64,000 nt of DNA, from positions 404,266 through 468,265 of the forward strand of contig JAHLLG010000002.1 of assembly GCA_020444275.1 (NCBI GenBank), written 5' to 3'. The notes under the pieces are model-generated. The model worked only from the letters and a program-made list of their open reading frames with translations. It ran no database searches and had not been told where the DNA came from. Position 1 is the stretch's first letter; every line of letters starts with the position of its first letter. This document shows, one piece after another, positions 344 to 57,989 of the stretch. The position numbers and the translations under genes were made by a program. Source of the stretch: Bacteroidota bacterium (GTDB lineage: Bacteria > Bacteroidota > Bacteroidia > Bacteroidales > UBA12077).

Positions 344-889
344 ATGAGCTTTAATATTGACGAGCGTTATAAAAAAATGAATAAAGGGGAGGTGCTTCTT
401 GCTTATAAAGGAAGTATAACTGCTGAACTTATTACTAACGTTTTAGGTGTAGTTGAGTCGAAACTCGATCATGTTATATCTAAATCAATTACAAAAAAGA
501 AAATATATAATATACTCGTTGAAAGTTTGCAAAATTTGTATCATCATGTTGACGACTTGCCTGATGAAATAAACGAAGGAATGGATATTCATTTTGGAAT
601 ATTTGTTATTTCCAAAGTAGATGAACAGTATGTGATTAGAACCGGAAATTTTTTAAAAAACGATAAGGTTAAGAAATTAAAGGAACGACTAGATAAAATT
701 AAATCATTATCAAAGGATGAATTAAAAGAGTTATATAAATTTGTACTCAATAATCAAAAGTTCTCAGATAAGGGTGGTGGCGGACTTGGCCTAATAGATA
801 TTGCAAGGAGAACGGATGGTAGAGTTGATTATGAGTTTGACGAATTTGACGATAATTACTCATTCTTTAACCTAAATATTACAATTTAG
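344..889 (+). CDS. SiaB-family / RsbW-SpoIIAB-like small serine-threonine protein kinase (GHKL ATPase fold)
   Basis: 181-aa ORF. It has a C-terminal GHKL G-box-like 'DKGGGGLGLIDIARR' and the size of an anti-sigma-type kinase. A DUF1987/SiaC-like gene follows 33 nt downstream. Confidence 0.6.
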   Translation: MSFNIDERYKKMNKGEVLLAYKGSITAELITNVLGVVESKLDHVISKSITKKKIYNILVESLQNLYHHVDDLPDEINEGMDIHFGIFVISKVDEQYVIRTGNFLKNDKVKKLKERLDKIKSLSKDELKELYKFVLNNQKFSDKGGGGLGLIDIARRTDGRVDYEFDEFDDNYSFFNLNITI

Positions 890-922
890 AACTAAAATAA
901 AAACTTAAAATAAAGCAATAAT

Positions 923-1303
923 ATGGAATCAATTTCAATTGAAGGAACTCCAAAAACTCCAACTGTAAATTTTGATGCCGCAACAGGGATAGTAGAAATT
1001 AAGGGAAGATCAATTCCTGAAAACTCAATTGAGTTTTATCGTCCGCTGGTTGAATGGTTAGAAGAATATTCAAAAGAACCACAAAAACTAACAACGGTTA
1101 ATATACAATTAGAGTATTTTAACACGAGTTCGTCAAAATGTATTTTGGATGTTTTCAAAAAGCTTGAGGCAATTAAAAAAGCCAGAAATGAGGTAGTTAT
1201 TAATTGGTATTACGAAGAGGATGATGAAGACATGCTTGAAGCAGGTGAAGATTATGAATCTATCATTCGTATTCCTTTTAAAATGATAGAGGTAGTTGAT
1301 TAA
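923..1303 (+). CDS. SiaC-family regulatory phosphoprotein (DUF1987)
   Basis: 126-aa ORF. Motifs 'IEGTPKTPTV', 'IPENSIEFYRPLVEWLEEY' and 'YFNTSSSK' match what I recall of P. aeruginosa SiaC/DUF1987. The acidic C-terminal half is also consistent. Confidence 0.65.
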   Translation: MESISIEGTPKTPTVNFDAATGIVEIKGRSIPENSIEFYRPLVEWLEEYSKEPQKLTTVNIQLEYFNTSSSKCILDVFKKLEAIKKARNEVVINWYYEEDDEDMLEAGEDYESIIRIPFKMIEVVD

Positions 1304-7501: not shown

Positions 7502-10500
7502 TTACATTAAGCAAGGACCTTCATCAACTGCTCCATTACAGTTATCATCAACTCCATTATCGCAAATTTCAACAGCTGTAGGATTTACATTAATTGCACT
7601 ATCATCACAGTCAGCATCATTTGATACATATCCTTCAGGTTGCTCACAAGTAATTGCTATAGATACGTTAGAACCGTATCCATCTCCATCATTATCAACG
7701 AACCATGTTACACCATCCACAGGATTTTCGTCTATTGATCCATTACAATTATTGTCTTCACCATCGCAAATTTCATCACTATCAAAATTTATTGATGCAT
7801 CATTATCGTTGCAATCAAGGTCAGCAGTGTAACCATCACCATCTTTATCACATAAGCTTTCAGGTAGTACTGTGTGTATACAAGCTCCTGTTGCTGCGTC
7901 GCAAGCATCAGCAGTACAAGGGTCTCCATCATCGCAATTTACAGGTGTTCCAACACATAAACAATCTTCATTTATTTGATCATTTTCAGTACAAGAATTT
8001 CCATCATCACATGCAGCACCAACAATACATCCATCACATATATCGCCAATTCCATTTCCGTCAGAATCTAATTGATTAGGATTAAATTCCGTGGGGCAGT
8101 TGTCGTCTGCATCAATAATACCATCTCCATCTGAATCAATAATACAAGGTGTACAGTCGGGGCCACCGCAATCAACACCTGTTTCATTTCCGTTTTGAAT
8201 ACCATCAGTACATGAAGCTTCCATACAAATGCCATTAACACAAATGCCTGATTCACAATCGCTATTTACGTTACAGAGACTTGCGGTAGAACAAGGTTGA
8301 CAATCAGGACCACCGCAATCTACATCCGTTTCAGCACCGTTTATTATACCATCATTACAAGTTTCAGTATCTGATACACATATTCCACTTATACAGGTTC
8401 CCTCAGAACATTGCATACCATCTGGAGCTGTTTGACCATCACAATTATAATCTACTAAACTACATTCAGGTTCCGGAGCTCCCGGGTAAATCGATGGATT
8501 ATTATCGTCACAATCCATATCGGCAGAGTAACCATCACCATCTGCATCATCTTCGCAAGGACAATCTGACGGACATGTTTCACAGTTTTCACCTGCATCA
8601 CAAATTCCGTCACCACATACCTGATCTTCTTCTAGCTGACATGAAGAGTCACATCCATCACCAGAAGACAAATTGCCATCATCACATTCTTCACAATCTT
8701 CAACAATCCCATTTCCGCATTCGCAGGTACTTGTTTCATCACAAGCATCACCAATACCATCGTCATTTTCATCTTCTTGCATTGGATTATAAGTGTTCGG
8801 GCAATTATCTACTTCATTAGGTATGCCATCTTCATCGCTATCTTCATTACTTCCATCACATTCCGGTGTTCCAATGCAATCTCCATCGTCACAATCTACC
8901 AGGCCATCAGCATCATTGTCCATTCCGTCGGAGCAGTTTGTTTCAGAAGCAACTACTTCTATACAATCTCCATTCATACATATAAAACCAGGAAGGCAAT
9001 CGTCATCTGACTCGCACATTGTAATGGTTCCCTCATCGACTTCTCCATCGCAGTCATTGTCCATACCATCGGTAACTTCTGTTCCTTCTGGATTTACATC
9101 TGGATTATTATCATCACAATCTGAATCATTATTTACATAACCTTCTGGTTGAGTACAGGCCACAATAGTATTATAAGGATCTCCATAACCATCATAGTCC
9201 AAATCTGCAAACCATGTTAATGCATCTACAGCATCTTCATCAATTATTCCATTACAATTGTTATCTATATCATCACAAAATTCGTCCTGATCTGGATTTA
9301 CATTCATGTTTGTATCATCACAGTCGTTGCTAATGCTTACGTAACCTTCTGGTTGTGAACAAGCAAGTATTATTTGATCTGGATTACCGTAACCATCCTC
9401 GTCAGAATCCAGATACCAAGTTGTAATATCAACGGGATTATCATCAATTACGCCATTGCAATCATTATCCATTCCATCACAATATTCATCAACAGAAGGA
9501 TTAATTGATTCGTTTTCATCATCACAGTCATCAGAATTTGTTACATATCCTTCACCAGCATTACAACTTACGATATAATTCTCGGCATTTCCATATCCAT
9601 CATTATCTGAATCTAAATACCAGGTTTGCATGTCTATGGCATCTTCATCTATTTCATTATCACAATCATTATCCATATTATCACAAATCTCATCAGCACT
9701 CGGATATGAATTGCTATTGCTGTCGTCACAGTCATCAGGATTTGTTGTATATCCCTCAGGGGCTTCAGGTGCATAAACTGCTTTATATTTATCACCGTAA
9801 CCATCCTGGTCCTGGTCACCCCAATAAAAATTAAAAGAAGGAGTATTGATTAAACTGTTATAATCACCATCAAAATCATCAGTATTATCTAAATCCAGAT
9901 TTTCAGGAACATCTTTTAGATCCATAAAACTGCCGCTAAAATCATTTGTTGAGTCTGTATCCAAATGAATAGGAGTATTTTGTAGACTTTGAAAGTCCCC
10001 ATCAAAATCATCAGTATTATCTAAATCCAAATTCTCAGGTATATCTTTTAGATCCATAAAACTACCGCTAAAATCATTTGTTGAGTCAGTATCTAAATGA
10101 ATAGGAATGTTTTGTAGATTTTGAAAGTCCCCATCAAAATCGTCAGTATTATCTAAATCCAGGTTTTCTGGGACATTATTAAGATCATTAAAATTACCGC
10201 TAAAAGTATTTCCAGCCATATTAGCATAGAAAGCATAAGGTACACTTAAAATTTGATTGGTTCCTACATGATCTCCATCAATTTTTACTGAAATGAAATA
10301 CGGAACATTTGACCAGTCAATGCTTTGGAAGCTAGTTGTTTCGATTGAACCAATAATTAAATTAATGATCCCATTGGATCCTGTATTTACTTCATGTGTT
10401 TCTTTGAAAATACTACTTCCTGACACAGAGCCTTGTAAGATAGAGATTTCAACTTCAATATCTTCATTTATTTTTAGTTGCCCGTCTGAGCTTCTTGTTA

Positions 10501-10600
10501 CTGCCTGATAGTTAATTCCTTGTGGGGATTGTGCAATGGCAAAAATACACATACACATAACTATAAAGAGAAAAAATAGTTTTTTCATGCTTGAAATCAT
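7502..10600 (-). CDS. Large secreted Cys/Asp-rich repeat protein (MopE-like metal-binding motifs, thrombospondin type-3-like Ca-binding repeats, Cys-rich repeats)
   Basis: 1032 aa with a signal peptide 'MKKLFFLFIVMCMCIFAIAQS' (an alternative start at 10588 is possible). Repeated 'D.D.DGYG...CDD.N..(I/V)NP...E.CDG.DNDC(D/N)G.(I/V)DE' modules. Two 'DSD.DGI.D..DNCP...NP.Q.D.D.(D/N)GIGD.CD' TSP3-like repeats. One 'CGNGIVEDCEECDDGN..SGDGCDSSC' Cys-rich repeat. Confidence 0.75.
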   Translation of the reverse strand: MISSMKKLFFLFIVMCMCIFAIAQSPQGINYQAVTRSSDGQLKINEDIEVEISILQGSVSGSSIFKETHEVNTGSNGIINLIIGSIETTSFQSIDWSNVPYFISVKIDGDHVGTNQILSVPYAFYANMAGNTFSGNFNDLNNVPENLDLDNTDDFDGDFQNLQNIPIHLDTDSTNDFSGSFMDLKDIPENLDLDNTDDFDGDFQSLQNTPIHLDTDSTNDFSGSFMDLKDVPENLDLDNTDDFDGDYNSLINTPSFNFYWGDQDQDGYGDKYKAVYAPEAPEGYTTNPDDCDDSNSNSYPSADEICDNMDNDCDNEIDEDAIDMQTWYLDSDNDGYGNAENYIVSCNAGEGYVTNSDDCDDENESINPSVDEYCDGMDNDCNGVIDDNPVDITTWYLDSDEDGYGNPDQIILACSQPEGYVSISNDCDDTNMNVNPDQDEFCDDIDNNCNGIIDEDAVDALTWFADLDYDGYGDPYNTIVACTQPEGYVNNDSDCDDNNPDVNPEGTEVTDGMDNDCDGEVDEGTITMCESDDDCLPGFICMNGDCIEVVASETNCSDGMDNDADGLVDCDDGDCIGTPECDGSNEDSDEDGIPNEVDNCPNTYNPMQEDENDDGIGDACDETSTCECGNGIVEDCEECDDGNLSSGDGCDSSCQLEEDQVCGDGICDAGENCETCPSDCPCEDDADGDGYSADMDCDDNNPSIYPGAPEPECSLVDYNCDGQTAPDGMQCSEGTCISGICVSDTETCNDGIINGAETDVDCGGPDCQPCSTASLCNVNSDCESGICVNGICMEASCTDGIQNGNETGVDCGGPDCTPCIIDSDGDGIIDADDNCPTEFNPNQLDSDGNGIGDICDGCIVGAACDDGNSCTENDQINEDCLCVGTPVNCDDGDPCTADACDAATGACIHTVLPESLCDKDGDGYTADLDCNDNDASINFDSDEICDGEDNNCNGSIDENPVDGVTWFVDNDGDGYGSNVSIAITCEQPEGYVSNDADCDDSAINVNPTAVEICDNGVDDNCNGAVDEGPCLM
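9026..9829 (-). repeat. Four tandem ~67-aa MopE-like modules (diverged coding repeats); two more copies near the C-terminus
   Basis: Reiterated '(W/Y)..D.D.DGYG........C...EGY......CDD.N....P...E.CD..DN(D/N)C(D/N)..IDE'. Confidence 0.6.
9842..10204 (-). repeat. In-frame tandem repeat, 132-nt (44-aa) unit, about 2.7 copies, with a 22-aa sub-period
   Basis: The unit 'FSGSFMDLKD(I/V)PENLDLDNTDDFDGDF(Q)(N/S)LQN(I/T)PIHLDTDSTND' is repeated. The nucleotide copies are near-identical by eye. Confidence 0.8.
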
Positions 10601-11082: not shown

Positions 11083-11478
11083 ATGAATATGGAAATCTAT
11101 TTTGACGGAAATAAAAAAGTAAACGCAAATTGGAATGGAGCAACAATTAAAACGGATCAACCAGCACAAGCTGGAGGTGATGGAACTGCACCGGCACCTT
11201 TTGATCTGTTTCTGGCTTCGATTGGAACTTGCGCAGGTATATATGTTAAGGGATTTTGCGATCAGAGAGGAATCTCAACAGATAATATTAAAATTATTCA
11301 AAAGATGAATTTTAATCCTGCTACTCGCTTAATTGATAAGCTTGATCTTGAAATTCAGTTACCTGCTGATTTCCCTGAAAAATACAAAGAAGCAGTAATT
11401 AATTCTGCAAACTTATGTGCAGTTAAAAGGCACATGCAGCAACCCCCGGAATTCGATGTCTATACTAAAACTGTATAA
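11083..11478 (+). CDS. OsmC family protein (peroxiredoxin-like)
   Basis: 131 aa. The core 'APAPFDLFLASIGTCAGIYVKGFC' and a second Cys in 'ANLCAVKRH' fit the OsmC/Ohr fold pattern. Confidence 0.75.
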   Translation: MNMEIYFDGNKKVNANWNGATIKTDQPAQAGGDGTAPAPFDLFLASIGTCAGIYVKGFCDQRGISTDNIKIIQKMNFNPATRLIDKLDLEIQLPADFPEKYKEAVINSANLCAVKRHMQQPPEFDVYTKTV

Positions 11479-11485
11479 AATGTAT

Positions 11486-11520
11486 ACCCCGATTTTTTGA
11501 GTCGGGGTTTATTTTTTCTT
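11486..11520 (+). terminator. Rho-independent terminator
   Basis: ACCCCGA-(loop)-TCGGGGT hairpin followed by TTATTTTTTCTT, 8 nt after the OsmC stop. Confidence 0.65.
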
Positions 11521-11640
11521 TCTATCAGACTAAAAACTTTCTTATATAGAATTAATTCTGTAAAATTTGCCACAGAAGAATCTAAAATTAAGATAAATCC
11601 TTTTTTCTCATTATTTTTACAATTCAAATAATGAGAGTGA

Positions 11641-12027
11641 ATGGAACATATATTTAAGACCGAAGTAAGAGGTTACGAATTAGATTCGTATGGACATGTT
11701 AATAATGCAGTATATATTAATTATTTGGAACAAGCCCGTTGGGAGATATTGAAAAAAGACGAGGTATTAAAATCGCTGTATCATAAGAATCTGTTGTTGG
11801 TTGTTACCGAAACAAATATTCGCTACATGCGCGAACTAAAATTATTTGATAAGATTGAAATAGAAACTATCATAAAATTTGAAGCACCATACCTAATCTT
11901 TAATCACGATTTGGTTAATGTTTCAGCAAATACAAAATCAGCAAAGGCGGTAGTTAAAACACTGTTAATCGATCAAGACAGGATACCTCAGGATATTCCT
12001 GCAGAATTATTATCATTGGTAAATTAA
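11641..12027 (+). CDS. Hotdog-fold acyl-CoA/acyl-ACP thioesterase (4HBT/YbgC type)
   Basis: 128 aa. N-terminal 'VRGYELDSYGHVNNAVYINYLEQARWE' matches the YbgC/4HBT motif. Confidence 0.75.
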   Translation: MEHIFKTEVRGYELDSYGHVNNAVYINYLEQARWEILKKDEVLKSLYHKNLLLVVTETNIRYMRELKLFDKIEIETIIKFEAPYLIFNHDLVNVSANTKSAKAVVKTLLIDQDRIPQDIPAELLSLVN

Positions 12028-12036
12028 ATCGTATAC

Positions 12037-12774
12037 ATGCAAAAATCAAATATAGTTAGTTGGGAAAGGGAGAATGAAATTGGTATCTTATCTATTTCAA
12101 ATGGTAAGGAAAATTACTTGAATGTACCTGATTTTTTGGATATTTATGATCTAAAAAGATGGATGGAGGAGGAAGGTTTAAAAGGAGTTCTAATTACCGG
12201 GATTGGACGCAATTTTTCTGCTGGTGCCGATTTGGATAAGTTGAAAAGCTTGGTTGCCAGTGCTAACAAATTAGAAGCAAGTCTAAACAAAGGTAAAGAA
12301 ATATTAGATTATATAGAAGATCTAAATATTCCGGTTGTTGCTGCAATCAATGGATTATGTTTTGGAGGCGGTTTGGAAATAGCATTAGCAAGTCACATAC
12401 GAATTGCATCGGAAAGGGCTCTGTTTGCATTTCCGGAAACTAATCATGGGCTAATTCCGGGACTAGGAGGAACATATCGCTTAACAAAGATACTTGGGAA
12501 AAACGCAATAGAGCTTATCTTAAGTGGTGATATGATTAATGCTGATAAGGCTAAGGAATTAGCTTTGGTTCATACCATTGCTAACGAAAAGAATTCTCAG
12601 CAATTTGCAATGGACTATTTAAAAAGATTGGTTGCTGACAGACCTGTTGAAGTTATTCATGCTGCTATGAAAGCAATTCGGAATGCCGATACAATGGGAA
12701 GTGACCAGGCTTTAAAAGCAGAAACAGAACTGTTTTGTAACCTGGCTGTGAATATCAATGATCATGAAGAGTGA
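12037..12774 (+). CDS. Enoyl-CoA hydratase/isomerase (crotonase) family protein
   Basis: 'GRNFSAGADLDKL', 'NGLCFGGGLEIALASHIRIAS' and 'FAFPETNHGLIPGLGGTYRL'. Both catalytic Glu positions appear to be present. Confidence 0.85.
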   Translation: MQKSNIVSWERENEIGILSISNGKENYLNVPDFLDIYDLKRWMEEEGLKGVLITGIGRNFSAGADLDKLKSLVASANKLEASLNKGKEILDYIEDLNIPVVAAINGLCFGGGLEIALASHIRIASERALFAFPETNHGLIPGLGGTYRLTKILGKNAIELILSGDMINADKAKELALVHTIANEKNSQQFAMDYLKRLVADRPVEVIHAAMKAIRNADTMGSDQALKAETELFCNLAVNINDHEE

Positions 12775-13123
12775 AATGCATAAGAAAATAGTACAGGTAA
12801 AATCGGTTGATGAAATAGAAGAAATTTTATTTAAGCACGCCGATGATTATTATTTTATTGATAAAGAGTTGAAATCTGTTGAACATAAAAATACCATAAA
12901 GAGTTTGGGCGCCAGATATCTAATAAAAAAGTCAATACTTGATTTTTTGAACTTGGGCGATGAGTTTAATGATATCGAAATTGAAAACGAGGATACAGGA
13001 AGGCCTTTAGTTAAATATTCAGGAAAAGTTCGTGCTGCAATAACGAGTAAAAATGTTCGTAATGTTCAAATTTCCATTTCGCACTCAAGAAATTATGTTA
13101 CTACATTAGTTGTTATTGAATAA
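12758..13123 (+). CDS. AcpS-like 4'-phosphopantetheinyl transferase homolog, apparently degenerate
   Basis: The C-terminal half aligns with AcpS ('FNDIEIENEDTGRPLV', 'VQISISHSRNYVTTLVVIE'). The N-terminal 'GIG.DI' Asp and the 'AAKEA' Glu are replaced ('VQVKSVDEI', 'LIKKSI'). An alternative start at 12776 would avoid the 17-nt overlap with the upstream gene. Confidence 0.55.
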   Translation: MIMKSEMHKKIVQVKSVDEIEEILFKHADDYYFIDKELKSVEHKNTIKSLGARYLIKKSILDFLNLGDEFNDIEIENEDTGRPLVKYSGKVRAAITSKNVRNVQISISHSRNYVTTLVVIE

Positions 13124-13773
13124 TGTATAAAGTTTTAAATTGGCATATAAAAAAGGATATAGGATATTTAGAGATAAATAATCCACCTTCAAATCCCATG
13201 GATGTTACTTTTTTCAAGGAGTTTTATTGGTGGAGAACTGAATTATCGGAAAAGAAGGAGATAAAAGCTATTATAATTTATGGCAAAGGTCGACATTTTT
13301 CATCGGGTGCTGTGTTAAGCGATTTATTAGGAATTATAAATCGAAGGCATCAGAAAGATGGAGATATTCAGAAGGTAAGTAGTTTTTTAAACCAGAATAG
13401 CAAGCTTTTTTATTCTTTAAAAGAATTAAATATTCCGGTTATTGCTGCAGTTCGCGGAGTATGTTTGGGCTCTGCATTAGAGTTGGCCTTATGTTCCGAT
13501 TATATTGTTTGCGGAGAAAAAGCAGTTTTAGGTTTGCCAGAATCTACTTTTGGATTGATTCCGGGCTGCACCGGGACATACGTTTTACCAAAATTGGTAG
13601 GTAAGGCATTGGCAATTGATATTATTCTTTCCGGGCAAACATTTTCGCCTGCAGAGGCCAAAAATATGGGAATTGTACAACGCGTAGTTCCTACCAAAGA
13701 AGTACTGAAACATGCTGAGCAAATTGCTGAAAGATTAAAGACCAGGTTCTATAAAGAACTTAAATCCATATAA
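13123..13773 (+). CDS. Enoyl-CoA hydratase/isomerase (crotonase) family protein, short form
   Basis: 'GKGRHFSSGA', 'VRGVCLGSALELALCSDYIV' and 'LGLPESTFGLIPGCTGTYVL'. TAATG overlap with the upstream gene suggests translational coupling. Confidence 0.8.
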   Translation: MYKVLNWHIKKDIGYLEINNPPSNPMDVTFFKEFYWWRTELSEKKEIKAIIIYGKGRHFSSGAVLSDLLGIINRRHQKDGDIQKVSSFLNQNSKLFYSLKELNIPVIAAVRGVCLGSALELALCSDYIVCGEKAVLGLPESTFGLIPGCTGTYVLPKLVGKALAIDIILSGQTFSPAEAKNMGIVQRVVPTKEVLKHAEQIAERLKTRFYKELKSI

Positions 13774-13783
13774 AACTATTCAT

Positions 13784-14911
13784 ATGAGTCATAAATTATC
13801 AGACGAAATATATGTTAAATTAATCGGAGCAGGATCTTACTTGCCCGGAAAACCAATTACAATAGAAGAGGTTGATCATTATTTAGGAGAACTTTCGGAA
13901 GCACCAAGAAAAATTCAGAAATGGTTGCACCGCATGAAAAATTTAATGAAAGAGATGCTGGAAGTGGAATATTACCATTATGCCATTGATCCGGAAACGG
14001 GTGAGTTTACCGAGGATAACATTACCATGTCGGTTAAAGCAGCCAAAAATGCCCTAACTAATGCAGGATTAAAACCCGAAGATATTGATTTAATCGTATA
14101 CGGAAGCGCTCATCAGGATCAAATGCCAACAGCATCAGTTCGTATTCAGGAAGCTCTTGGAATTGAACAGTGTGGCGAAATGTCTATCCATGCAAATTGC
14201 ACCTCAGCATATAAAGCATTTTTAGTGGCAAGCGATTTTATTAAATCAGGGCGATATAAAAACGCTTTAGTGCTATCATCCAGTATGTCTTCATCAGAGT
14301 TAAGAGCCGATTATTATAATCAGGAACTTGTTAAAAAGGAGGAATTGTTTTTAAGATATTTCTTAAGCGATGGTGCAGGAGCTTTGGTCTTGCAGGCTGC
14401 AGAATCAAATGTAAATGGTTTGTTTGTAGAACATACATATATGGAGTCAATTGGTGGAAAAAAGCCAGCTGCAATGCTTAATAAACGACCGGCATACTGG
14501 ATGAATCCGAAGAAAGAATTTGAACTTGGATATCATCACCTGGCTCAAATGTTTAACGAGCAATTAAGAACGCATTTTCATGACCATGATGGAAGCGTTT
14601 TTTTAAAAGGATTAAAACGAATGCTCCAGAAGTATCCAATTAATTTAGATCAGTTAAAATATTTCCAGGTTAATTTTCCATCCAAACATATATCTGAGTT
14701 AATAATGGACGAATGTGAGGAAATAGGAATAAACAGAGATACACTCTACACTAAAATGGCTTCCATGGGCTATGCAGGTCCTCCAATGGCTTTTATATCT
14801 ATTGATAAAATTATTTCTGAAGAAAAGTTGCACTCTAATGATATAATTCTGAGCTTTGTAACCGAGGTTAGTAAATTTATGCAGGCCGGATATGTATTAA
14901 AGATGTACTAA
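13784..14911 (+). CDS. KAS III (FabH)-like thiolase-fold condensing enzyme, non-canonical active site
   Basis: 'KLIGAGSYLPG', active-site Cys context 'SIHANCTSAYKAF', and 'LSDGAGALVL'. The FabH 'PHQAN' and 'GNTSAAS' motifs are replaced by 'QVNFPSKH' and 'MGYAGPP'. Confidence 0.7.
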   Translation: MSHKLSDEIYVKLIGAGSYLPGKPITIEEVDHYLGELSEAPRKIQKWLHRMKNLMKEMLEVEYYHYAIDPETGEFTEDNITMSVKAAKNALTNAGLKPEDIDLIVYGSAHQDQMPTASVRIQEALGIEQCGEMSIHANCTSAYKAFLVASDFIKSGRYKNALVLSSSMSSSELRADYYNQELVKKEELFLRYFLSDGAGALVLQAAESNVNGLFVEHTYMESIGGKKPAAMLNKRPAYWMNPKKEFELGYHHLAQMFNEQLRTHFHDHDGSVFLKGLKRMLQKYPINLDQLKYFQVNFPSKHISELIMDECEEIGINRDTLYTKMASMGYAGPPMAFISIDKIISEEKLHSNDIILSFVTEVSKFMQAGYVLKMY

Positions 14912-15000
14912 TTTGGCATAGTTTATGTAAATCAAACAGAATAGAATCTTAATAGAATTTTTATTAACTTACAACAAATTATTAATTAACATTTAGGGTT

Positions 15001-15648
15001 ATGAAAAAGATTTTTACACTACTATTACTGGCTTTATTTGTGCAAGCATCTTTTGCACAGGAAGATGAGAAAGAAAAGCCTAAAAGAGGAGAGGATATAA
15101 ATACCATTTTTACAAAAGAAAATCTTAAGGTTACCGGTGGTTTTATTTCGCCTGAGTTAAAGGTTGGAAATGTTTACGAAGATGCATCCATGTTAGTTGG
15201 AGGTAGAATAGGTATGACATTTAATGATAAATTTAATTTAGGAATGGGAGGTTATGGATTGGTTAATAACAGCAATTTTGAAGCTATTGATTATCCTGGA
15301 ATAGATCAAGCTAGAATAAGTATGGGATATGGTGGACTTACCATGGAGTATGTTTTCTTTACCAATGAAAAAATTCATTTTACTATTCCTGTTCTTATTG
15401 GTGCCGGAGGTGTTTATATTTACGAAGATGTTGACGATTATTTTAATAACGATTGGAATGAATTAGAAAACTCAGCAGCTTTTATTGTTGAGCCTGGTAT
15501 ATATATTGAGTTTAATCTGTTTAAGTTTTTCAGAATAGATTTAGGGGCTTCTTATCGATTAGTAAGAGAAACTGACCTTGTGAATCTATCTGATGATGAT
15601 CTATCGGATTTTACAATAAACGCCGGATTTAAATTTGGATTCTTTTAA
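15001..15648 (+). CDS. Small outer-membrane beta-barrel protein (hypothetical)
   Basis: Signal peptide 'MKKIFTLLLLALFVQASFAQ', Gly/aromatic alternating strands, and a C-terminal 'GFKFGFF' with a terminal Phe. Confidence 0.6.
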   Translation: MKKIFTLLLLALFVQASFAQEDEKEKPKRGEDINTIFTKENLKVTGGFISPELKVGNVYEDASMLVGGRIGMTFNDKFNLGMGGYGLVNNSNFEAIDYPGIDQARISMGYGGLTMEYVFFTNEKIHFTIPVLIGAGGVYIYEDVDDYFNNDWNELENSAAFIVEPGIYIEFNLFKFFRIDLGASYRLVRETDLVNLSDDDLSDFTINAGFKFGFF

Positions 15649-15676
15649 TATTATTAATTGTATAGATGCTAATGTT

Positions 15677-15720
15677 GACTGTTCCTTTTGTATTAAGCGA
15701 ACAGTCTTTTTTTTTTTTTT
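15677..15720 (+). terminator. Strong rho-independent terminator
   Basis: GACTGTTC-(14-nt loop)-GAACAGTC hairpin followed by a run of 14 T. Confidence 0.8.
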
Positions 15721-15767
15721 GAAATAGAACCCGTAAATTTATTACATGAATTGATGTATTGATTGAA

Positions 15768-16769
15768 ATGAATGAGATAAAAATTATAGGTATTATTGGT
15801 AGTGGTAAAATGGGATCAGATTTGTTTAATTATCTTTCCGATTTTAATTTTCAGTTGGTATGGTTTACGCGTAACCTTGATCATAAGCAGCATTTGACAA
15901 AAACATTTCAGAAAAAAATCAAAAGACAACTAAAACATGGTATTATAACTCATGAGGTATTTGATTTTAAAAACCGATACAAGATTACAGACTGTTTAGA
16001 AGATTTGGAAAATGCAGATTTAATTATTGAATCAGTCATAGAAGAAAAAGAAATAAAGCAGGAGTTATTTAAGAAGCTTGATCAGATCGTAAAACCATCC
16101 TGTATATTAGCCTCAAACTCATCGTCTGTACTGCCCTCAGAGCTATCAGAAGTAAAAAGACCGAACAGGATTCTCGCTATACATTTTTTCTTTCCAATAG
16201 CTTTTAAAAATGTTGTTGAATTAATTGCTTCAGAGTTAACTGATGAAATAACGATAGAAAAAACCAGAATATTTCTAAAAGAGATTAAAAGATTTTTTAT
16301 TGAGCAGAATGAGAAAGGCGCTTTTATTCTGAACAGGTTCTTACTGCAATTGCAGATTGAAGCTTATAATTTAATCAAACAATATAATCTTGCATTTAAT
16401 CAGTTGGATGAAGTAAGTAAAGAACTGGTTCCTGAATTTGGTCTCTTTGAAATCATGGATCATGTAGGGCATTATACCATGTTCAATGCAGTAATGAACT
16501 ATTCACGAATGGATAAGGACAAAAAAAACTATGAGCCATTAATGAATGAATTGCAGAACAGGGCAAAGAATACAGGTAAACAAAAAGGACATTTATTTTA
16601 TGATGAACAGAAAGAATGGGCTGGAATAACGCAAGAAGCTAAACAAGAAATTATCGATACTCTTTCTGAAACTGCCAAATCATATTATAAGCAGCTAATA
16701 AACGATTATGAGTTAAATCCTTACCCTCTTAAGAAAGCTTTAGAAGAGTATTGTGGTATAGTTCTGTAA
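15768..16769 (+). CDS. 3-hydroxyacyl-CoA dehydrogenase family protein
   Basis: Rossmann 'IGIIGSGKMGSDL', 'ASNSSS' and 'HFFFPIAFKNVVELI' (HFFNP-type motif). I prefer the ATG at 15768 to the TTG at 15759 used in the ORF track. Confidence 0.8.
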   Translation: MNEIKIIGIIGSGKMGSDLFNYLSDFNFQLVWFTRNLDHKQHLTKTFQKKIKRQLKHGIITHEVFDFKNRYKITDCLEDLENADLIIESVIEEKEIKQELFKKLDQIVKPSCILASNSSSVLPSELSEVKRPNRILAIHFFFPIAFKNVVELIASELTDEITIEKTRIFLKEIKRFFIEQNEKGAFILNRFLLQLQIEAYNLIKQYNLAFNQLDEVSKELVPEFGLFEIMDHVGHYTMFNAVMNYSRMDKDKKNYEPLMNELQNRAKNTGKQKGHLFYDEQKEWAGITQEAKQEIIDTLSETAKSYYKQLINDYELNPYPLKKALEEYCGIVL

Positions 16770-16849
16770 TGAACATTACCTGTATTTAATTTGTCAATTA
16801 TTTTGTTATTTTTGAGCACTGAATCACCGAACCAATAATTGTTTAATAG

Positions 16850-18067
16850 ATGGGTAATAAAGTAGTAGTTACGGGTTTCAATATGATTACAGCCTTAGGA
16901 CTTGATTGGGAAGAAACCTGGAAAAATATACAAGAAGGGAAAAGTGGAGTAAAGAGAATATCCATATTTGATGCTTCTGATTTGCAAACCCAAGTTGCAG
17001 CAGAATTGCCTGCTGAATTTAATGATCTATCCAGAGAAAAGATTAAAAAGAGAATTTCAAAGCAAATGACACGTGTAACACAAATGTCGTATGTATGTGC
17101 ATTAGATGCTATTGAAAAGCACCAAATTGATTTTGAGCAGATAAATAAGAAGCGGGTGGGAGTAATTATGGGTGTTGTAAATACTGGTGATTCAAGTGCA
17201 GAGCAAGGAACAAATCCAAAAAATATGATTATTAAGCGTATGAACAATGCCATGTCGGCATGGATTGGAATGCGCTACAATATTGAAGGACCAAATTATA
17301 CAACATCATCGGCTTGTTCATCCTCAGCATTTGCCATTGCATTGGGGTATGATGCCATTAAAGCCGGGCGTGCCGATATGATGATTGTTGGCGGAGCTGA
17401 TTCTATTATTAATAAAGAAGAAATTGAAGGGTTTAACGAGATCTATGCACTTTCGGTGCAAAATGACAAGCCAGAAAAGGCAAGCTGTCCATTCTCTAAA
17501 AACCGCGATGGGTTTGTGATTGGTGAAGGCGCAGGAATTATGATTTTAGAATCGGAAGAATCAGCAAAAAAACGTGGAGCGACTATATATGCTGAGTTAT
17601 CTGATTATGCGTTTACCAACGAATCATATAACATTATGGCACCAAAACCTGATGGCGAAGGAATGGCAGATACCATGGAATTAGCTTTGCAACATGCCAA
17701 AATTTCAAAGGATGATGTAGATTATATCAATGCGCATGGAACCTCAACGATGCTTAACGATATGTTCGAAACCCAGGCTGTAAAGAAAGTGTTTGGTGAA
17801 CGAGCGTATAAAATTCCGGTATCATCAACCAAATCGATGACTGGACATACGATTGGTGCTGCAGGAGTGATTGAAGGTATAATAAGTGTTTTAGCGATTA
17901 AAGATAGCGTAATTCCTCCTACAATCAACTATAATGAACCTGATCCGGAACTGGATTTGGATTATGTTCCGAATAAGGCCCGAAAACAAGAAATTAAAGT
18001 AGCTTTAAGCAATTCGTTTGCTTTTGGAGGGCATAATGCAACGCTGGTTTTTAAACGGTACAGTTAG
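16850..18067 (+). CDS. Beta-ketoacyl-ACP synthase (FabF/FabB-type KS)
   Basis: Cys-His-His triad contexts: 'TSSACSSSAFAI', 'INAHGTSTMLND' and 'STKSMTGHTIGAAG'. Confidence 0.9.
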   Translation: MGNKVVVTGFNMITALGLDWEETWKNIQEGKSGVKRISIFDASDLQTQVAAELPAEFNDLSREKIKKRISKQMTRVTQMSYVCALDAIEKHQIDFEQINKKRVGVIMGVVNTGDSSAEQGTNPKNMIIKRMNNAMSAWIGMRYNIEGPNYTTSSACSSSAFAIALGYDAIKAGRADMMIVGGADSIINKEEIEGFNEIYALSVQNDKPEKASCPFSKNRDGFVIGEGAGIMILESEESAKKRGATIYAELSDYAFTNESYNIMAPKPDGEGMADTMELALQHAKISKDDVDYINAHGTSTMLNDMFETQAVKKVFGERAYKIPVSSTKSMTGHTIGAAGVIEGIISVLAIKDSVIPPTINYNEPDPELDLDYVPNKARKQEIKVALSNSFAFGGHNATLVFKRYS

Positions 18068-19222: not shown

Positions 19223-19840
19223 TTATTTTAAGTTAGCAATATCTACTTTGGGTTTGCCTTTTTCTTTAAAAGGAAATTGCTTTTCGAACTCTTTCAAAGC
19301 TTCTTCTTGAACATCAAAAGCTTCATCTTCAAAGAATCTTCCTTTAACAGGCTTCAAACTATTTTCATAGAATTCCAGTGCCATAAAAGGATCAAAGTTT
19401 TTATTATTTCTTGTAGATATTTCATATTCTTTTGCATTTTTAAAACCAAATCGATGATAATAGTTTGGATCTCCGAATAAAATCATCCCTTTAAATCCTA
19501 ATTTCTTGGCCTTATCAATAGCGTAATGTATAAGTTTAGAGCCAATTCCTTTTCCCTGAAGCTCAGGAAAAACAGAAATTGGTCCAACACATAATATTTC
19601 ATGCACCTCGTTTTGATCATCGACAACCTTAGCTTTTGTTGATAAAATATGTCCGATGATTTGCTCATTAGCTAAAGCAATCAAATCTAATTCACCAATA
19701 TAGCTATCACTTTTTCTAAGCAGATGCAATACGAGATGTTCTGAGCATCCTGAAGTATATAAATTCCAGAATGTTTCTCTGGTTAAATATTCAGTTGTAT
19801 AATATTCTTTTCTATTGGTTTCTCTTATTTTAATTTCCAT
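19223..19840 (-). CDS. GNAT family N-acetyltransferase
   Basis: 'ELQGKGIGSKLIHYAIDKAKKLGF' acetyl-CoA-binding motif. I set the start at the internal ATG 19840 ('MEIKIRE'), which removes the overlap with the upstream gene. Confidence 0.75.
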   Translation of the reverse strand: MEIKIRETNRKEYYTTEYLTRETFWNLYTSGCSEHLVLHLLRKSDSYIGELDLIALANEQIIGHILSTKAKVVDDQNEVHEILCVGPISVFPELQGKGIGSKLIHYAIDKAKKLGFKGMILFGDPNYYHRFGFKNAKEYEISTRNNKNFDPFMALEFYENSLKPVKGRFFEDEAFDVQEEALKEFEKQFPFKEKGKPKVDIANLK

Positions 19841-19868
19841 GATACAGTTTCTTAAATGTTTATAAGTT

Positions 19869-20423
19869 TTACTCTCTCCAATACTCAGGTTTATCCATAG
19901 CCTTGGCACAAATTATATCTCCTTTTTCTGTTATAAAACCTGTTGAGGTTAAGGATTGAACCATCCATGCATCTTTAACCTCTTCCGGAATGGGATAAGG
20001 AGCAGGATAACCCATTTTTTTGGCATCAGGAATAAAACCATGTTTTGGATAATAGGTAATATGCCCCAATACAAAAACCAGTTTGGAACCCATATCTTTC
20101 AATCTTTTAATACCTTCCTGGATTAACATGCCGCCAATTCCCTGATTTTGATATTCGGGAATAACTGCCAGCGGAGCTAAAATATGAACCAATGTTTCAT
20201 TCTTCATTGAATTGATATAAGCTCTGGTAAACAAGATATGTCCGATAGCTTGCTTATTGTCAAAAGCAAGCAAGGAAAGCACTGGTTCTGCCGATTTATC
20301 TTTTAACAGGTTTGTGGTTAACTGTGCTTCTTCATCACTACCGAATGCTAGTTTTTCAACATGAATAATCTCATTCATATTGTTGAAACTGGTTTCTTTA
20401 ATTTGAATATGTTGTTTTTTCAT
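19869..20423 (-). CDS. GNAT family N-acetyltransferase (paralog of neighbour)
   Basis: 'EYQNQGIGGMLIQEGIKRLKDMG' motif. The likely start is 'MKKQHIQIKE' at 20423. Confidence 0.75.
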   Translation of the reverse strand: MKKQHIQIKETSFNNMNEIIHVEKLAFGSDEEAQLTTNLLKDKSAEPVLSLLAFDNKQAIGHILFTRAYINSMKNETLVHILAPLAVIPEYQNQGIGGMLIQEGIKRLKDMGSKLVFVLGHITYYPKHGFIPDAKKMGYPAPYPIPEEVKDAWMVQSLTSTGFITEKGDIICAKAMDKPEYWRE

Positions 20424-20546
20424 TGTACTTAAAATTAGACTACACAAATATAAAGTGCAAGTGTGCAGTTAATGAATTTAAATGATTTTTAATTATATAT
20501 AAGTGATTATTAAAGCATTAGAGAAACAATGCTTTATAAAATATTC

Positions 20547-21258: not shown

Positions 21259-22122
21259 TTAATTTTTTACACATCGAATATAATACTCGAAATATTCACT
21301 ATCTTCATATACATCAACGTAGTAACTAAATTGATAATACTTATTATTATAAAAAAGACTAAAATGAACTGGATGTTGAAAAGATTCAATAGTGCTTGTC
21401 CAAAATGAAGTTAGTTCTCCTATACCTTGAAAAGATGATGGACATTCTCCTCCAGGTAGAGCTGAGAATCCACTGCCATTAGTATTTTTTAAGTAATTTT
21501 GCCACAAAGTTGTATCAGATTTTAAGGCATTACCTGGTTCATCACCAATATAATTTATTAAAGTTTCATATTCCTTTCTACTAGGTAAGTGCCAGCCATC
21601 CGGACATGCATTTATAGCTGCAGCATAATTGTACAGAAGCCCATATACATTAGCATTTTCTTCGCTCCACCTATATGCAGTACTTCCTTCTGTTTCATAG
21701 TTAAGATTTTCAGCCATCCACCATTGATTACCAATCTTAACCGTTTTGTAAATTTTACCATCTCTTGTATCCTGAAGGTTTCCAGTAGTTGGAGTAACCT
21801 TAATATAATCTTGCTTTTCAGTATGGTCTCCCCCTTTTTCATTTTTTGCATATAGGGAGACCGTATAATTCCCGGCAAGTTTATAAGTATGAGAGGGATT
21901 TTGTGTTTCAGATGTTGAGTTATCTCCAAAATCCCAATTCCAACCTGTCGGATTATTTTGAGAGATATCGGTGAAATTTACGTTTTCGCCCATTTTAATA
22001 TCCGTTTTATCAGCAACAAATTCTGATTCTGGTACTTTTACTTCATCTTCGTTATTACATCCGATATTTACGATTAATAAACTAATGATTGCAAAACTTA
22101 ATTTAAACTTTCTCATAATCAA
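21259..22122 (-). CDS. Lipoprotein with PKD domain and Fibrobacter-succinogenes-major-paralogous (Fib_succ/TIGR02145-type) domain
   Basis: Lipobox 'IVNIGC'. PKD 'WNWDFGDNSTSETQNPSHTYKLAGNYTVSL'. Fib_succ motifs 'DTRDGKIYKTVKIGNQWWMAENL', 'CPDGWHLPS' and 'NGSGFSALPGG'. Confidence 0.8.
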   Translation of the reverse strand: MIMRKFKLSFAIISLLIVNIGCNNEDEVKVPESEFVADKTDIKMGENVNFTDISQNNPTGWNWDFGDNSTSETQNPSHTYKLAGNYTVSLYAKNEKGGDHTEKQDYIKVTPTTGNLQDTRDGKIYKTVKIGNQWWMAENLNYETEGSTAYRWSEENANVYGLLYNYAAAINACPDGWHLPSRKEYETLINYIGDEPGNALKSDTTLWQNYLKNTNGSGFSALPGGECPSSFQGIGELTSFWTSTIESFQHPVHFSLFYNNKYYQFSYYVDVYEDSEYFEYYIRCVKN

Positions 22123-22221: not shown

Positions 22222-23085
22222 TTAATCCTTTACACAACGAATATAAAATTTAGTCTCATCACTATAGTAGTACTGGTCTATATAATGCACGAATTCGCAT
22301 ATAGAATTATGATCCCAGATTTCAAGATGAACTGGATTAGATCCAACTGTATTAGCAGTCCAAAAAGCTGCACATTCTCCCAATCCTCCCCAAAATGCAC
22401 CGCTTAAATATCCTCCAGGTAATGCTGAGAATCCACTTCCATTAGTATTATTTGAATACGATTTCCATAGGGTTGTGTCTTTTTTTAGTGCATTACCCGG
22501 ATCTGATCCAATATAATTTATTAATGTTTCGTATTCAGTTTTACTTGGTAAATGCCAACCTTCTGGACAGGCTTCATTTGATTCAGAAAAACTATATAGA
22601 AAACCATATAATTCTCCATATTCTTCACTTAATCTGTATGCAATGCAACCATCAGTTTCGTATTTTAAGTTTTCAGCCATCCACCATTGTCTACCAATCT
22701 TAACCGTTTTGTAAATTTTACCATCTCTTGTATCCTGAAGGTTTCCAGTAGTTGGAGTAACCTTAATATAATCTTGCTTTTCAGTATGGTCTCCCCCTTT
22801 TTCATTTTTTGCATATAGGGAGACCGTATAATTCCCGGCAAGTTTATAAGTATGAGAGGGATTTTGTGTTTCAGATGTGGAGTTATCTCCAAAATCCCAG
22901 TTCCATCCTGTCGGATTATTTTGAGAGATATCGGTGAAATTTACATTTTCACCCATTTTAATATCCGTTTTATCAGCAACAAATTCTGATTCTGGCACTT
23001 TTACTTCATCTTCGTTATCACATCCGATACTTACAATTACTAAACTAATAATAGCAAAACTTAATTTAAACTTTCTCATAATCAT
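22222..23085 (-). CDS. Lipoprotein with PKD domain and Fib_succ-type domain (tandem paralog)
   Basis: Same architecture and the same 287-aa length as 21259..22122. Confidence 0.8.
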   Translation of the reverse strand: MIMRKFKLSFAIISLVIVSIGCDNEDEVKVPESEFVADKTDIKMGENVNFTDISQNNPTGWNWDFGDNSTSETQNPSHTYKLAGNYTVSLYAKNEKGGDHTEKQDYIKVTPTTGNLQDTRDGKIYKTVKIGRQWWMAENLKYETDGCIAYRLSEEYGELYGFLYSFSESNEACPEGWHLPSKTEYETLINYIGSDPGNALKKDTTLWKSYSNNTNGSGFSALPGGYLSGAFWGGLGECAAFWTANTVGSNPVHLEIWDHNSICEFVHYIDQYYYSDETKFYIRCVKD

Positions 23086-32510: not shown

Positions 32511-33719
32511 TTAATCTTGATAAGATTTTACATACTCTTCCTGTAGAACAGGTTTTTTTCTAAAGATAAGAAGTAAAATATAAGTAACAAAACCAAACGT
32601 TAGGGCCAGGATTACACCAAATACAAGGCTTCCGACCACATATTGAATTAAGTTATCTTTAATTAAATCAAAAGTGATATTTGAATTGAAGCTAAGATTC
32701 AACTTATTCGCATCAATAAACAATTCTCCGGTTTTAAAACTTGCGTAAAGAATAATTGGAATCATAGGAGGAATACTGATATTTGATGTAACCAGTACAA
32801 TTACTTTATTCAATTTTAAAATATGTGCTAAAGCAAAAGCAATCAACATCTGATATCCCCACACAGGAGCAACACCCATAAACAGTCCCAACATAACAGC
32901 AAGTGTAATTTTAATATTGGGTTCTTTGTTTTGAAGTATTTGTACACGTAAGAATTCCTGAATATTTCTTTTGTTTAATCTCTTAACAAAGGCAAACGGT
33001 TTGGTTACCAAAAGAGCATAAAAAACCAGAAAAGTGTTTAAAATGCTTATTCGGGTAAAATCCTTAAACGGGTTAAAATGAGAAACCCGAGTTTCTTTAG
33101 GAGCATAATAAACCTGTATAGGCAAATGTGTTACATCTATTCCTTTCCATGCTGCACGAACAATTACTTCAATTTCGAATTCGTACTTTCTGGTAAAAAA
33201 ATGCATTTTACTTAATGGTTTTAGGGGATAAAGTCTAAAACCAGATTGTGTATCGGGCAAGGATATTCCTGTTTCGAACTTAAACCAGAAATTGGAAAAG
33301 CGGTTACCAAAACTACTCTTACCGGGTATTCCATCCTGCTCCATATTTCGGTTACCGATAATAATTGCATTGGGATTTTCCTCTATAGCTTCTACAAATT
33401 TTGGTAAATCTGAAGCAAAATGTTGTCCATCAGAATCAATGGTAATAGCATACTCATACCCTTTATTCCACGCATGTTTAAAGCCGGTTCTTAAAGCAAA
33501 TCCTTTTCCTTTGTTTTTAGCATAGCTTACCACATCAATTGGATCTATCTGGTTTAAAAGATCCTGGGTATTATCTGTAGAACCGTCGTTTACTACAATA
33601 ACCTGATTAGTGTATTTCAATACATCAGCAACAACTTTTTCAATGGTTTGATGATTATTGTACGTTGGTATGATTACACAGCATTTTCGCTCCCTGAACA
33701 GTTCGTGGTACTTTTCCAA
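32511..33719 (-). CDS. Family 2 glycosyltransferase with C-terminal membrane domain
   Basis: 'CCVIIPTYNNHQTI', 'VVNDGSTDNT' and 'IDSDGQH'. The C-terminal third has several TM helices. Confidence 0.85.
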   Translation of the reverse strand: MEKYHELFRERKCCVIIPTYNNHQTIEKVVADVLKYTNQVIVVNDGSTDNTQDLLNQIDPIDVVSYAKNKGKGFALRTGFKHAWNKGYEYAITIDSDGQHFASDLPKFVEAIEENPNAIIIGNRNMEQDGIPGKSSFGNRFSNFWFKFETGISLPDTQSGFRLYPLKPLSKMHFFTRKYEFEIEVIVRAAWKGIDVTHLPIQVYYAPKETRVSHFNPFKDFTRISILNTFLVFYALLVTKPFAFVKRLNKRNIQEFLRVQILQNKEPNIKITLAVMLGLFMGVAPVWGYQMLIAFALAHILKLNKVIVLVTSNISIPPMIPIILYASFKTGELFIDANKLNLSFNSNITFDLIKDNLIQYVVGSLVFGVILALTFGFVTYILLLIFRKKPVLQEEYVKSYQD

Positions 33720-53218: not shown

Positions 53219-53231
53219 TTTTTCAGATATA

Positions 53232-53507: not shown

Positions 53508-53545
53508 GTCTTTTTCTTTTATTTAAAATCCGAACCAAACTAATT

Positions 53546-54634: not shown

Positions 54635-54686
54635 TTTATTTTTTTGATACTTTTAACCATTAAATTAAGAAGAAAACAAAGAACGT

Positions 54687-55961: not shown

Positions 55962-55975
55962 TTGTTGATTGTACG

Positions 55976-56353: not shown

Positions 56354-56363
56354 ACAAAATATA

Positions 56364-56666: not shown

Positions 56667-56681
56667 GATACTATTCAGTGG

Positions 56682-57940: not shown

Positions 57941-57944
57941 AAAA

Positions 57945-57965: not shown

Positions 57966-57989
57966 TTTTTTGTTTAAAATAGTTAATTC

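Follow-up and report, generated by a model that had tools for sequence, protein, structure and literature searches.

Flexirubin-type pigments are chemotaxonomic markers of Bacteroidota, and their resorcinol half is thought to depend on the enzymes DarA and DarB (DarAB). A stretch of 64,000 nucleotides from a Bacteroidales genome (assembly GCA_020444275.1, contig JAHLLG010000002.1, positions 404,266 to 468,265; this whole stretch is called the window below) carries a flexirubin-type aryl-polyene cluster that keeps the dialkylresorcinol (DAR)-handling genes DarG and DarH without DarAB, which raises the question of how a ring partner for the polyene might be made. The initial annotation of the window pointed to a gene row at 11641-18067, built around an enzyme resembling β-ketoacyl-acyl carrier protein synthase III (KAS III), as a possible displaced DAR arm. 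Our analysis indicates, with good confidence, that this row is one half of a conserved module that depends on an acyl carrier protein (ACP) and accompanies DarAB-less flexirubin-type clusters. In the reading that we favour, to which we give a probability of roughly 0.4, the module would make 3-oxo- and 2-enoyl-acyl thioesters on its own ACP, and the DarB-like enzyme would couple the two, giving the polyene a partner with a hydroxylated ring.

The loci were compared with the KAS III-like gene (13784-14911, + strand) as anchor. Its relatives were recovered from 163 stretches of species-representative genomes, and 80 species-level loci, designated by L-numbers such as L048 and L083, entered the comparison. 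The genes for the thioesterase, the two crotonases and the KAS III-like protein stood next to one another in an unchanged order in 72 of the 80 loci, and those for the 3-hydroxyacyl-thioester dehydrogenase (HADH) and the ketosynthase (KS) were present in 62. The row had been described as ACP-less, which is correct for 11641-18067 itself, but two ACP genes, ACP1 (53232-53507) and ACP2 (56364-56666), lie on the + strand of the same window. ACP2, with the motif DGDSLMFLEL, is the candidate cognate carrier protein of the module; its orthologues were 63-80% identical in 41 loci and adjoined the module KS in 36 of them, and a FabD-like gene followed ACP2 in 39 loci. In L083 both halves of the module were contiguous, including the sulfotransferase, ACP1, DarH2 and the second DarG copy. 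The ACP-less appearance is therefore a local effect of rearrangement, since in 36-39 loci ACP2 and FabD come after the KS and the halves are joined in L083. Across its carriers the module comprises nine to fifteen genes.

The module was also tied to the pigment genes. A flexirubin-cluster gene was found within 10 kb of it in 57 of the 80 loci, and in all 34 informative loci, that is, those with the FabA-like dehydratase gene of the flexirubin cluster in view, the module started directly after that gene. In the commonest layout a family 2 glycosyltransferase (GT2) gene followed a few genes beyond the far end of the module. In the window the FabA-like dehydratase gene (33738-34112) adjoins the GT2 gene (32511-33719) and the module stands outside the cluster, so the term displaced is apt. 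Which arrangement, module inside or outside, is ancestral is a matter of inference.

The KAS III-like protein (PF08545, 3e-8) belongs to the StlD/DarB family. It scored 126.2 bits with the StlD/DarB model NF005293 (cut-off 450), 84.9 bits with the FabH model TIGR00747 (cut-off 292.1), and 26.9-44.4 bits with models of 3-hydroxy-3-methylglutaryl synthase (HMGS; cut-offs 244-360), the last being below both other scores. For comparison, the true DarB of L048 scored 530.7 bits with NF005293 and 551.8 bits with the DarB model NF053539. Alignment with a DarB profile by hhalign gave a probability of 99.85% and an E-value of 1e-30 over 341 columns. The best solved relative by sequence was StlD (1.4e-16), with a phmmer match from residue 5, while most FabH matches began near residue 77, the N-terminal extension being absent from FabH. 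StlD was also the best Foldseek match of the predicted model (mean pLDDT 81.5, with residues 225-266 of low confidence), with a template modelling (TM) score of 0.80 against about 0.66 for FabH. Family scores, profile alignment and structural search thus agree on the DarB lineage rather than a housekeeping FabH, in keeping with the DarB-type role considered in the initial annotation, and judged by its sequence the protein is a full-length StlD/DarB paralogue, neither FabH nor HMGS. A housekeeping FabH identity was ruled out by the score of 84.9 against 292.1 bits, the lack of a conserved triad and the rarity of the family.

The active site of this enzyme has been changed. Cys139 was conserved in all 121 family members surveyed, and His110, His251, His252 and His302 were invariant across them. 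The position of the DarB His was occupied by Asn297 and that of the DarB Asn by Tyr330 in 121 of 121 members, in contrast to the 120 DarBs examined, all of which carried Cys, His and Asn. Among full-length relatives down to about 30% identity, nearly all kept Cys139, His251-His252 and Tyr330, and position 297 was variable. Identity was 70-99% among the 120 best homologues listed, and the family is rare, with 36 clusters (50% identity) at E<=1e-30 in an exhaustive search of 1.84 billion cluster representatives. These sequence features mark out a distinct and rare clade, strongly constrained and with its active site rewired, not a decayed copy. DarB-type chemistry is not to be assumed for it, because no member retains the catalytic His and Asn of DarB.

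The flexirubin-type cluster itself (23109-51352, - strand), recognised with curated models, extends from a tyrosine ammonia-lyase (TAL) gene to FlxY and includes the first DarG and DarH copies. It encodes TAL (PF00221, 9.8e-158), a ketoreductase (KR), several KS and chain length factor proteins, two ACPs, an LpxL-type acyltransferase, an ApeP/FabZ-like dehydratase, DarG (164.6 bits for the family, cut-off 70), DarH (461.6 bits, cut-off 300), ATP-binding cassette (ABC) transporter proteins and a thioesterase, together with LolA, LolB2 (143.6 bits, cut-off 60), the FabA-like dehydratase, GT2, an MMPL fusion protein, an FAD oxidase, AAT and FlxY (715.8 bits, cut-off 520). The bona fide DarB of L048 and the adjoining DarA-position protein were used as tblastn queries, and in the 64 kb they matched only the KAS III-like gene (26% identity), in agreement with the initial statement that the pigment locus has no darA/darB pair. 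The DarA-position protein of L048 was also compared with the Flavodoxin_5 protein encoded close to the module of L172, and the two showed no significant similarity.

The place usually held by DarAB is filled by another gene. The canonical order LpxL-DarA-DarB-ApeP-DarG-DarH-ABC was found in L086, L113 and L160. In the window the DarA-DarB slot contains a gene for a B12-binding radical S-adenosylmethionine (SAM) enzyme (45257-46615, - strand; TIGR04072, 422.7 bits, cut-off 360), and the order LpxL-radical SAM-ApeP-DarG-DarH-ABC, with no DarAB, was shared by the window, L087, L088, L093-L095, L104 and L116. In L104 and L116 the module lies in the cluster, accompanied by an extra DarG-DarH pair. 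In L139 and L143 it comes after the FabA-like gene; one DarG-DarH pair can be seen in L139, whose visible range is shorter, and three in L143, and in both the DarAB slot lies out of range. No DarAB was in view in any of these four module-bearing loci. Two or three tandem DarG-DarH pairs occurred in L143, L104, L116, L129, L118, L102 and L138; the first three show the module, and for the remaining four the visible stretch does not reach the module region. The canonical DarAB clusters compared had a single DarG-DarH pair.

The gene set at 11641-18067 was checked by open reading frame (ORF) calling and by Pfam and NCBIfam scans, and the nine features of the gene order first described were all recovered in place on the + strand. 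The four-gene core begins with a hotdog acyl-thioester thioesterase of the YbgC/FadM type (11641-12027; PF13279, 4.2e-18), whose best solved homologue is E. coli YbaW/FadM (1njk, 5.7e-12) and which carries the YELDSYGHVNNAVY motif including the family Asp. It is followed by crotonase 1, of the enoyl-thioester hydratase/dehydratase type (12037-12774; PF00378, 1.2e-33), in which the catalytic Glu motifs GGGLEIAL and FPETNHG both align with solved hydratases. Crotonase 2 (13123-13773; PF00378, 4.6e-41) is C-terminally short at 216 amino acids and keeps both catalytic Glu in the motifs ALELAL and LPESTFG. Both crotonases resemble generic short- and medium-chain enoyl-CoA hydratases. Beyond the KAS III-like gene, the HADH (15768-16769; PF02737, 7.9e-38, and PF00725) has all of its motifs, namely GxGxxG, the His in IHFFFP, the Glu in VVELI and the Asn in ILNRF; ATG 15768 is the likelier start, as called in L001, and TTG 15759 is also possible. 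The row ends with a FabF-like KS (16850-18067; PF00109, PF02801; NF005589, 459.5 bits, cut-off 387), which is predicted to be an elongating, malonyl-dependent enzyme because its triad of Cys156 (SSACSSS), His296 (HGTST) and His332 (GHTIGAAG) is intact.

The remaining features of the row are less constant. A gene for an AcpS-like protein is present at 12758-13123, as the initial annotation had it, but the protein lacks the catalytic motifs. It matched PF22624 weakly (5.6e-5), its best NCBIfam score was 41.9 bits against a cut-off of 107, and alignment to V. cholerae AcpS (3qmn) showed that the N-terminal GxDIxEIxR and KEA motifs are absent. In AcpS these two motifs, the first of which contains the conserved Asp, serve Mg binding and catalysis. 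Since both are missing, this protein is probably not a transferase and appears to be a pseudo-phosphopantetheinyl transferase; a functional phosphopantetheinyl transferase (PPTase) at this position was ruled out by the missing motifs and the score below the cut-off. The gene is lineage-specific, being detected in 27 of the 80 loci. The small outer-membrane (OM) β-barrel (15001-15648; PF13505, 6.9e-7) is likewise a lineage-specific insert, present in 22 of the 80 loci; the space between the KAS III-like gene and HADH is taken in most other lineages by a B12 radical-SAM gene. The β-barrel gene after the KAS III-like gene was tandemly duplicated in L006 and L008 (~11150-12800). The terminator noted earlier is real by reading of the sequence: a hairpin with the arms GACTGTTC (15677-15684) and GAACAGTC (15699-15706) runs into a stretch of fourteen T (15707-15720), the whole feature covering 15677-15720 on the + strand. 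A consensus terminator scan did not report the site, because the hairpin loop is 14 nt.

The second half of the module occupies 51645-61081, across the pigment locus from the first, with its genes on the + strand except where stated; the part up to 57940 forms a divergent operon. It opens with a distant DarG-like protein, a second copy of uncertain start (51645-52205; NF053536, 40.7 bits, cut-off 70), whose gene pairs in the window and in L083 with that of DarH2, a second copy of the BtrH-related acyltransferase (52205-53218; NF053550, 324.7 bits, cut-off 300). ACP1 contains the motif LGLDSIDAIEL, and its L083 orthologue beside DarH2 has PF00550. A tailoring sulfotransferase (53546-54634; PF13469, 2.6e-31) and a B12-binding radical SAM enzyme (54687-55961) follow, the latter with orthologues 72-77% identical immediately upstream of the thioesterase in L046, L055 and L064. 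A conserved 125-aa protein without a Pfam match (55976-56353) has orthologues (47-48%) in the same three loci, where the radical SAM gene and the thioesterase flank them, and in L084 its orthologue adjoins the radical SAM gene. After ACP2 come a functional-looking AcpS-type PPTase (56682-57050; PF01648, 8e-11), with GIDIEEIERF and FKEA motifs that align to 3qmn, and a divergent FabD-like malonyl-CoA:ACP transacylase (57050-57940; TIGR00128, 134.8 bits, cut-off 260.9). The last gene encodes another B12-binding radical SAM enzyme (59741-61081, - strand; PF04055, PF02310), with orthologues 58-70% identical in about 28 module loci and with 44% and 34% identity to its orthologues in L171 and L172, respectively, radical-SAM genes that come immediately after the KAS III-like gene. 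Judging from these identities, the 59741-61081 gene has remained a companion of the KAS III-like gene across deep divergence. A tandem pair of 125-aa paralogues, each with an N-terminus resembling a signal peptide (58830-59207 and 59244-59621, - strand), lies between the FabD-like and radical-SAM genes; at the thresholds used, the fetched loci yielded no homologue of either.

The tailoring genes beside the module vary by lineage, but every one of them is of a type that modifies hydroxyl groups. A sulfotransferase was found in the window, L083 and L084, a phenolic-type O-methyltransferase in L002 and L167, and a UDP-glycosyltransferase in L172. In L084 (15527-18361), genes for an adenosine 5'-phosphosulfate (APS) kinase, a PAPS_reduct-family (CysD-like) protein and a CysN-like GTPase adjoin the module-linked sulfotransferase gene, in what looks like a built-in supply of 3'-phosphoadenosine 5'-phosphosulfate (PAPS), and this region has no aryl-polyene genes within 10 kb. 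The O-methyltransferase, of plant type (PF08100 and PF00891), is encoded between OsmC and the module thioesterase in L002 (6623-7729) and L167 (6631-7731). In the window no more than 160 bp separate OsmC from the thioesterase, and a terminator-like hairpin (11486-11508) lies in this gap.

The favoured reading builds on the observed gene content, active-site residues and linkage, and the chemistry that it adds to them is conjectural throughout. Going by family membership, the PPTase would activate ACP2 and FabD would load malonyl groups. The FabF-like KS would then extend an acyl starter to a 3-oxoacyl thioester, HADH could reduce this to a 3-hydroxyacyl thioester, and the two crotonases could dehydrate it to a 2-enoyl thioester. 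The line would stop at the two intermediate types used by DarB/StlD because no enoyl reductase is present in the module. The published substrate pair of DarB, a 3-oxoacyl and a 2-enoyl thioester, matches this scheme (PMC6836626). The KAS III-like enzyme would load one chain on Cys139 and fuse it head-to-head with the other, closing a cyclohexanedione-, resorcinol- or pyrone-type ring that keeps a free hydroxyl group (enol or phenol). Of all the steps this is the least secure, because the DarB His and Asn are replaced. The FadM-like thioesterase might release the product, which a B12 radical-SAM enzyme may methylate or oxidise. Finally, the DarH-type acyltransferases would esterify the ring product with the ACP-bound polyene, and the sulfotransferase might decorate the remaining hydroxyl group. 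The favoured reading would explain why DAR-handling genes persist without DarAB. A further and more doubtful extension is that a new StlD/DarB-derived clade, marked by Cys, His-His and Tyr, builds a non-DarAB ring head group together with HADH, the crotonases, a private ACP and a co-evolving B12 radical-SAM enzyme, and so gives anaerobic Bacteroidales sulfated, methylated or glycosylated flexirubin-like pigments without DarA.

Considerable evidence weighs against ring formation by this module. With the DarB model NF053539 the KAS III-like protein reached only 98.6 bits against a cut-off of 550, far below this curated cut-off as it was below that of NF005293, and the Asn297 and Tyr330 replacements affect the whole family. 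The StlD residue His302 was mutated for structural work (5gk2), which we take as a sign of its importance. Searches by tblastn with the DarA-position protein of L048 found no DarA-like aromatase in the window or in 81 other loci. HADH and the crotonases may act on either ACP or CoA thioesters. L048 has a bona fide DarB (551.8 bits) and a DarA-position gene beside the module, L101 holds the slot radical-SAM gene plus DarAB, so the two are not mutually exclusive, and the distant relatives in L169-L172 have no Dar genes nearby. The darAB genes may also lie elsewhere in the source genome. The module is therefore not a strict substitute for DarAB, given the true DarAB of L048 and the coexistence in L101, and its simple replacement of DarAB is unproven. 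The earlier idea of a resorcinol-forming module accordingly stands in part: the intact KS, HADH and crotonase residues can give both DarB substrate types, but the DarB His and Asn are replaced and there is no DarA.

Among known systems, a close precedent is the DarA/DarB arm of flexirubin biosynthesis in Chitinophaga pinensis and Flavobacterium johnsoniae (PMC3992019, PMC6836626). The module shares with it the thiolase-fold lineage, the N-terminal extension and the catalytic Cys, a location within or beside a TAL/FlxY aryl-polyene cluster that carries DarG, DarH and ABC genes, and enzymes able to make the substrate types of DarB. It differs in Asn297, Tyr330 and the family-specific His251-His252, in lacking a DarA aromatase, in having its own KS, ACP, FabD, PPTase, HADH, crotonases and B12 radical-SAM enzymes, in scores far under the DarB cut-offs, and in being able to coexist with true DarAB (L048). 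DarB homologues without DarA are also found in cyanobacteria, where their products are unknown and their reactivity is suspected to be unlike that of DarB (PMC6836626). They similarly represent the DarB lineage without an adjoining aromatase, and differ in phylum and gene context.

The StlC/StlD/StlE stilbene pathway of Photorhabdus offers another parallel, StlD (5gk0-5gk2) being the best solved match of the KAS III-like protein in both sequence and structure. Stilbene formation combines an aryl-CoA made by an ammonia-lyase and a ligase, one ACP-based extension to an enoyl thioester, and head-to-head cyclisation, and this logic fits the TAL, FlxY, KS, ACP2, FabD, HADH and crotonases of the window. 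However, the equivalent of StlD His302 is Asn, there is no StlC aromatase, HADH and crotonases of the β-oxidation type stand in for the KR and dehydratase of the fatty acid synthase (FAS) type, and the setting is a pigment cluster in a Bacteroidales host. The initial annotation knew of no description of such a composition, and we found no paper on such a module in the literature on DarG/DarH naming and on the gene combination; these searches returned only the 2014 work on Azoarcus and Chitinophaga and a cyanobacterial review, none of which covers it.

A private FAS-like line is the strongest alternative, and we regard it as possible, if less likely than ring formation. In this case the KAS III-like enzyme would be an initiator in the FabH position for an unusual starter, such as an aryl-CoA supplied by FlxY or else a branched acyl-CoA; the FabF-like KS, ACP2 and FabD would elongate, HADH and the crotonases would replace FabG and FabZ, the B12 radical-SAM enzymes would methylate the chain, and a linear unsaturated or hydroxylated product would be moved by DarH or freed by the thioesterase. 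The gene set corresponds one-to-one with type II FAS (FabD, FabH, FabF, FabG, FabZ, AcpP, AcpS), with transacylase, a KAS III fold in the initiator position, KS, carrier and PPTase, except for the enoyl reductase, and the module holds no other initiator. The linkage of KS, ACP, PPTase, FabD and KAS III-like genes also persists in distant relatives without Dar genes: where the KAS III-like protein is 38-52% identical, KS-ACP-(PPTase)-KAS III-radical SAM-FabD-HADH-crotonase arrangements occur without pigment genes. FlxY-like ligases adjoin the module in L084, L167 and several close relatives, in keeping with an aryl starter. Unlike type II FAS, the module uses HADH and crotonases in place of a short-chain dehydrogenase/reductase (SDR)-type ketoreductase and a hotdog dehydratase, and has B12 radical-SAM partners. 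Against an initiator, the His-Asn pair with which KAS III enzymes decarboxylate malonyl groups is absent from all members, the protein is nearer to the non-elongating StlD/DarB lineage than to FabH, and the clusters with DarG and DarH would be left with no source of DAR. The module might instead feed 3-oxoacyl and 2-enoyl thioesters to DarAB encoded elsewhere, with the KAS III-like protein priming or transferring acyl groups. The arrangement in L048, with DarA-DarB-DarG-DarH immediately beside the module, fits such a supply function, which we nevertheless consider improbable: the canonical slot lacked DarAB in the window and in nine related clusters, and no large contig bearing the KAS III-like gene (for example, those of 4.6, 3.5 and 2.9 Mb) was among the best 120 of at least 7,896 DarB relatives, a weak negative.

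The other explanations can be given little weight. EncI and EncJ make benzoyl-CoA for enterocin by β-oxidative shortening, and by analogy 4-coumaroyl-CoA from TAL and FlxY could be converted to 4-hydroxybenzoyl-CoA or 4-hydroxybenzoate by crotonase, HADH, thiolase-like cleavage and a 4HBT-type thioesterase. TAL and FlxY are in the window, FlxY-like ligases stand beside the module in several genomes, and the enzyme types fit a series of hydratase, dehydrogenase, thiolase and thioesterase. This route is very unlikely all the same, as the thiolase-fold protein is KAS III/StlD-like and no thiolase, the tightly linked elongating KS, ACP2 and FabD are left unexplained, and no hydroxycinnamoyl-CoA hydratase-lyase was noticed among the best 60 solved hits listed for the crotonases. 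An ordinary β-oxidation operon (FadBA/FadE) was rejected: the module has no thiolase or acyl-CoA dehydrogenase and contains instead a malonyl-dependent KS, with ACP and FabD linked in 36-41 loci. Chance adjacency of a housekeeping or unrelated lipid pathway to the pigment locus was rated equally low. The KAS III-like protein and the KS are unusually conserved (60-88%), as housekeeping enzymes might be, and the flanks in L002 and L003 have no pigment genes within 10 kb, but the same junction inside the pigment cluster recurs in every informative locus, the ACP and FabD diverge from housekeeping types (134.8 against 260.9 bits for FabD), and the KAS III-like family is rare. The β-branching cassette offered in the initial annotation as an alternative fares worst of all and can practically be set aside. 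The thiolase-fold enzyme, two crotonases and KS do match cassettes of the PksF/G/H/I and CurD/E/F types superficially. In these an HMG synthase, a dehydrating ECH1, a decarboxylating ECH2 and a decarboxylating KS would be expected, whereas the KS retains Cys156 with both His and shows no Cys-to-Ser exchange of the KS0 type, both crotonases retain both hydratase Glu, and HMGS models gave 27-44 bits against 126 for StlD/DarB. There is also no polyketide synthase assembly line nearby to branch.

A few other features of the window were recorded. Its G+C content is about 33%, the closest relatives of its genes are in uncultured Bacteroidales metagenome-assembled genomes, including Prolixibacteraceae and Draconibacterium, and a public sequencing run holds a 10-kb contig identical to part of it. 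The region 7502-10600 (- strand), where G+C is raised (0.387) and GC skew is strongly negative (-0.288), encodes a protein of 1032 aa in which seven putative metal-binding repeats of the MopE type and one repeat of the Dictyostelium type were recognised. RsgA is followed immediately downstream by two GNAT acetyltransferase ORFs that overlap by about 40 bp (19223-20447, - strand); for the upstream ORF the mechanical list gives a GTG start, and the L001 call is shorter. Between the module and FlxY are two tandem 287-aa paralogues (PKD and Fib_succ_major; 21259-22122 and 22222-23085, - strand), whose near-identical domain coordinates suggest a recent duplication. A gene for a SiaC-family regulatory phosphoprotein occurs within about 10 kb of the module in the window (344-1303, with DUF6272 upstream) and in L084 (5539-5922), and its presence in two distantly related genomes may be a coincidence.

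Taken together, our results describe a flexirubin/DAR-type cluster associated with an StlD/DarB-derived ketosynthase clade, which is new here, while its chemistry is unproven. A large set of uncultured Bacteroidales has flexirubin-type clusters in which the DAR-handling genes are retained, DarAB are lacking and this module is carried instead, and genome mining keyed on DarB cut-offs will miss such clusters. If the KAS III-like enzyme is an initiator, it would be a KAS III working without the His-Asn pair. If it does form a ring, it would represent a new catalytic solution for head-to-head ketosynthases and provide the pigments of these bacteria with a new head group.

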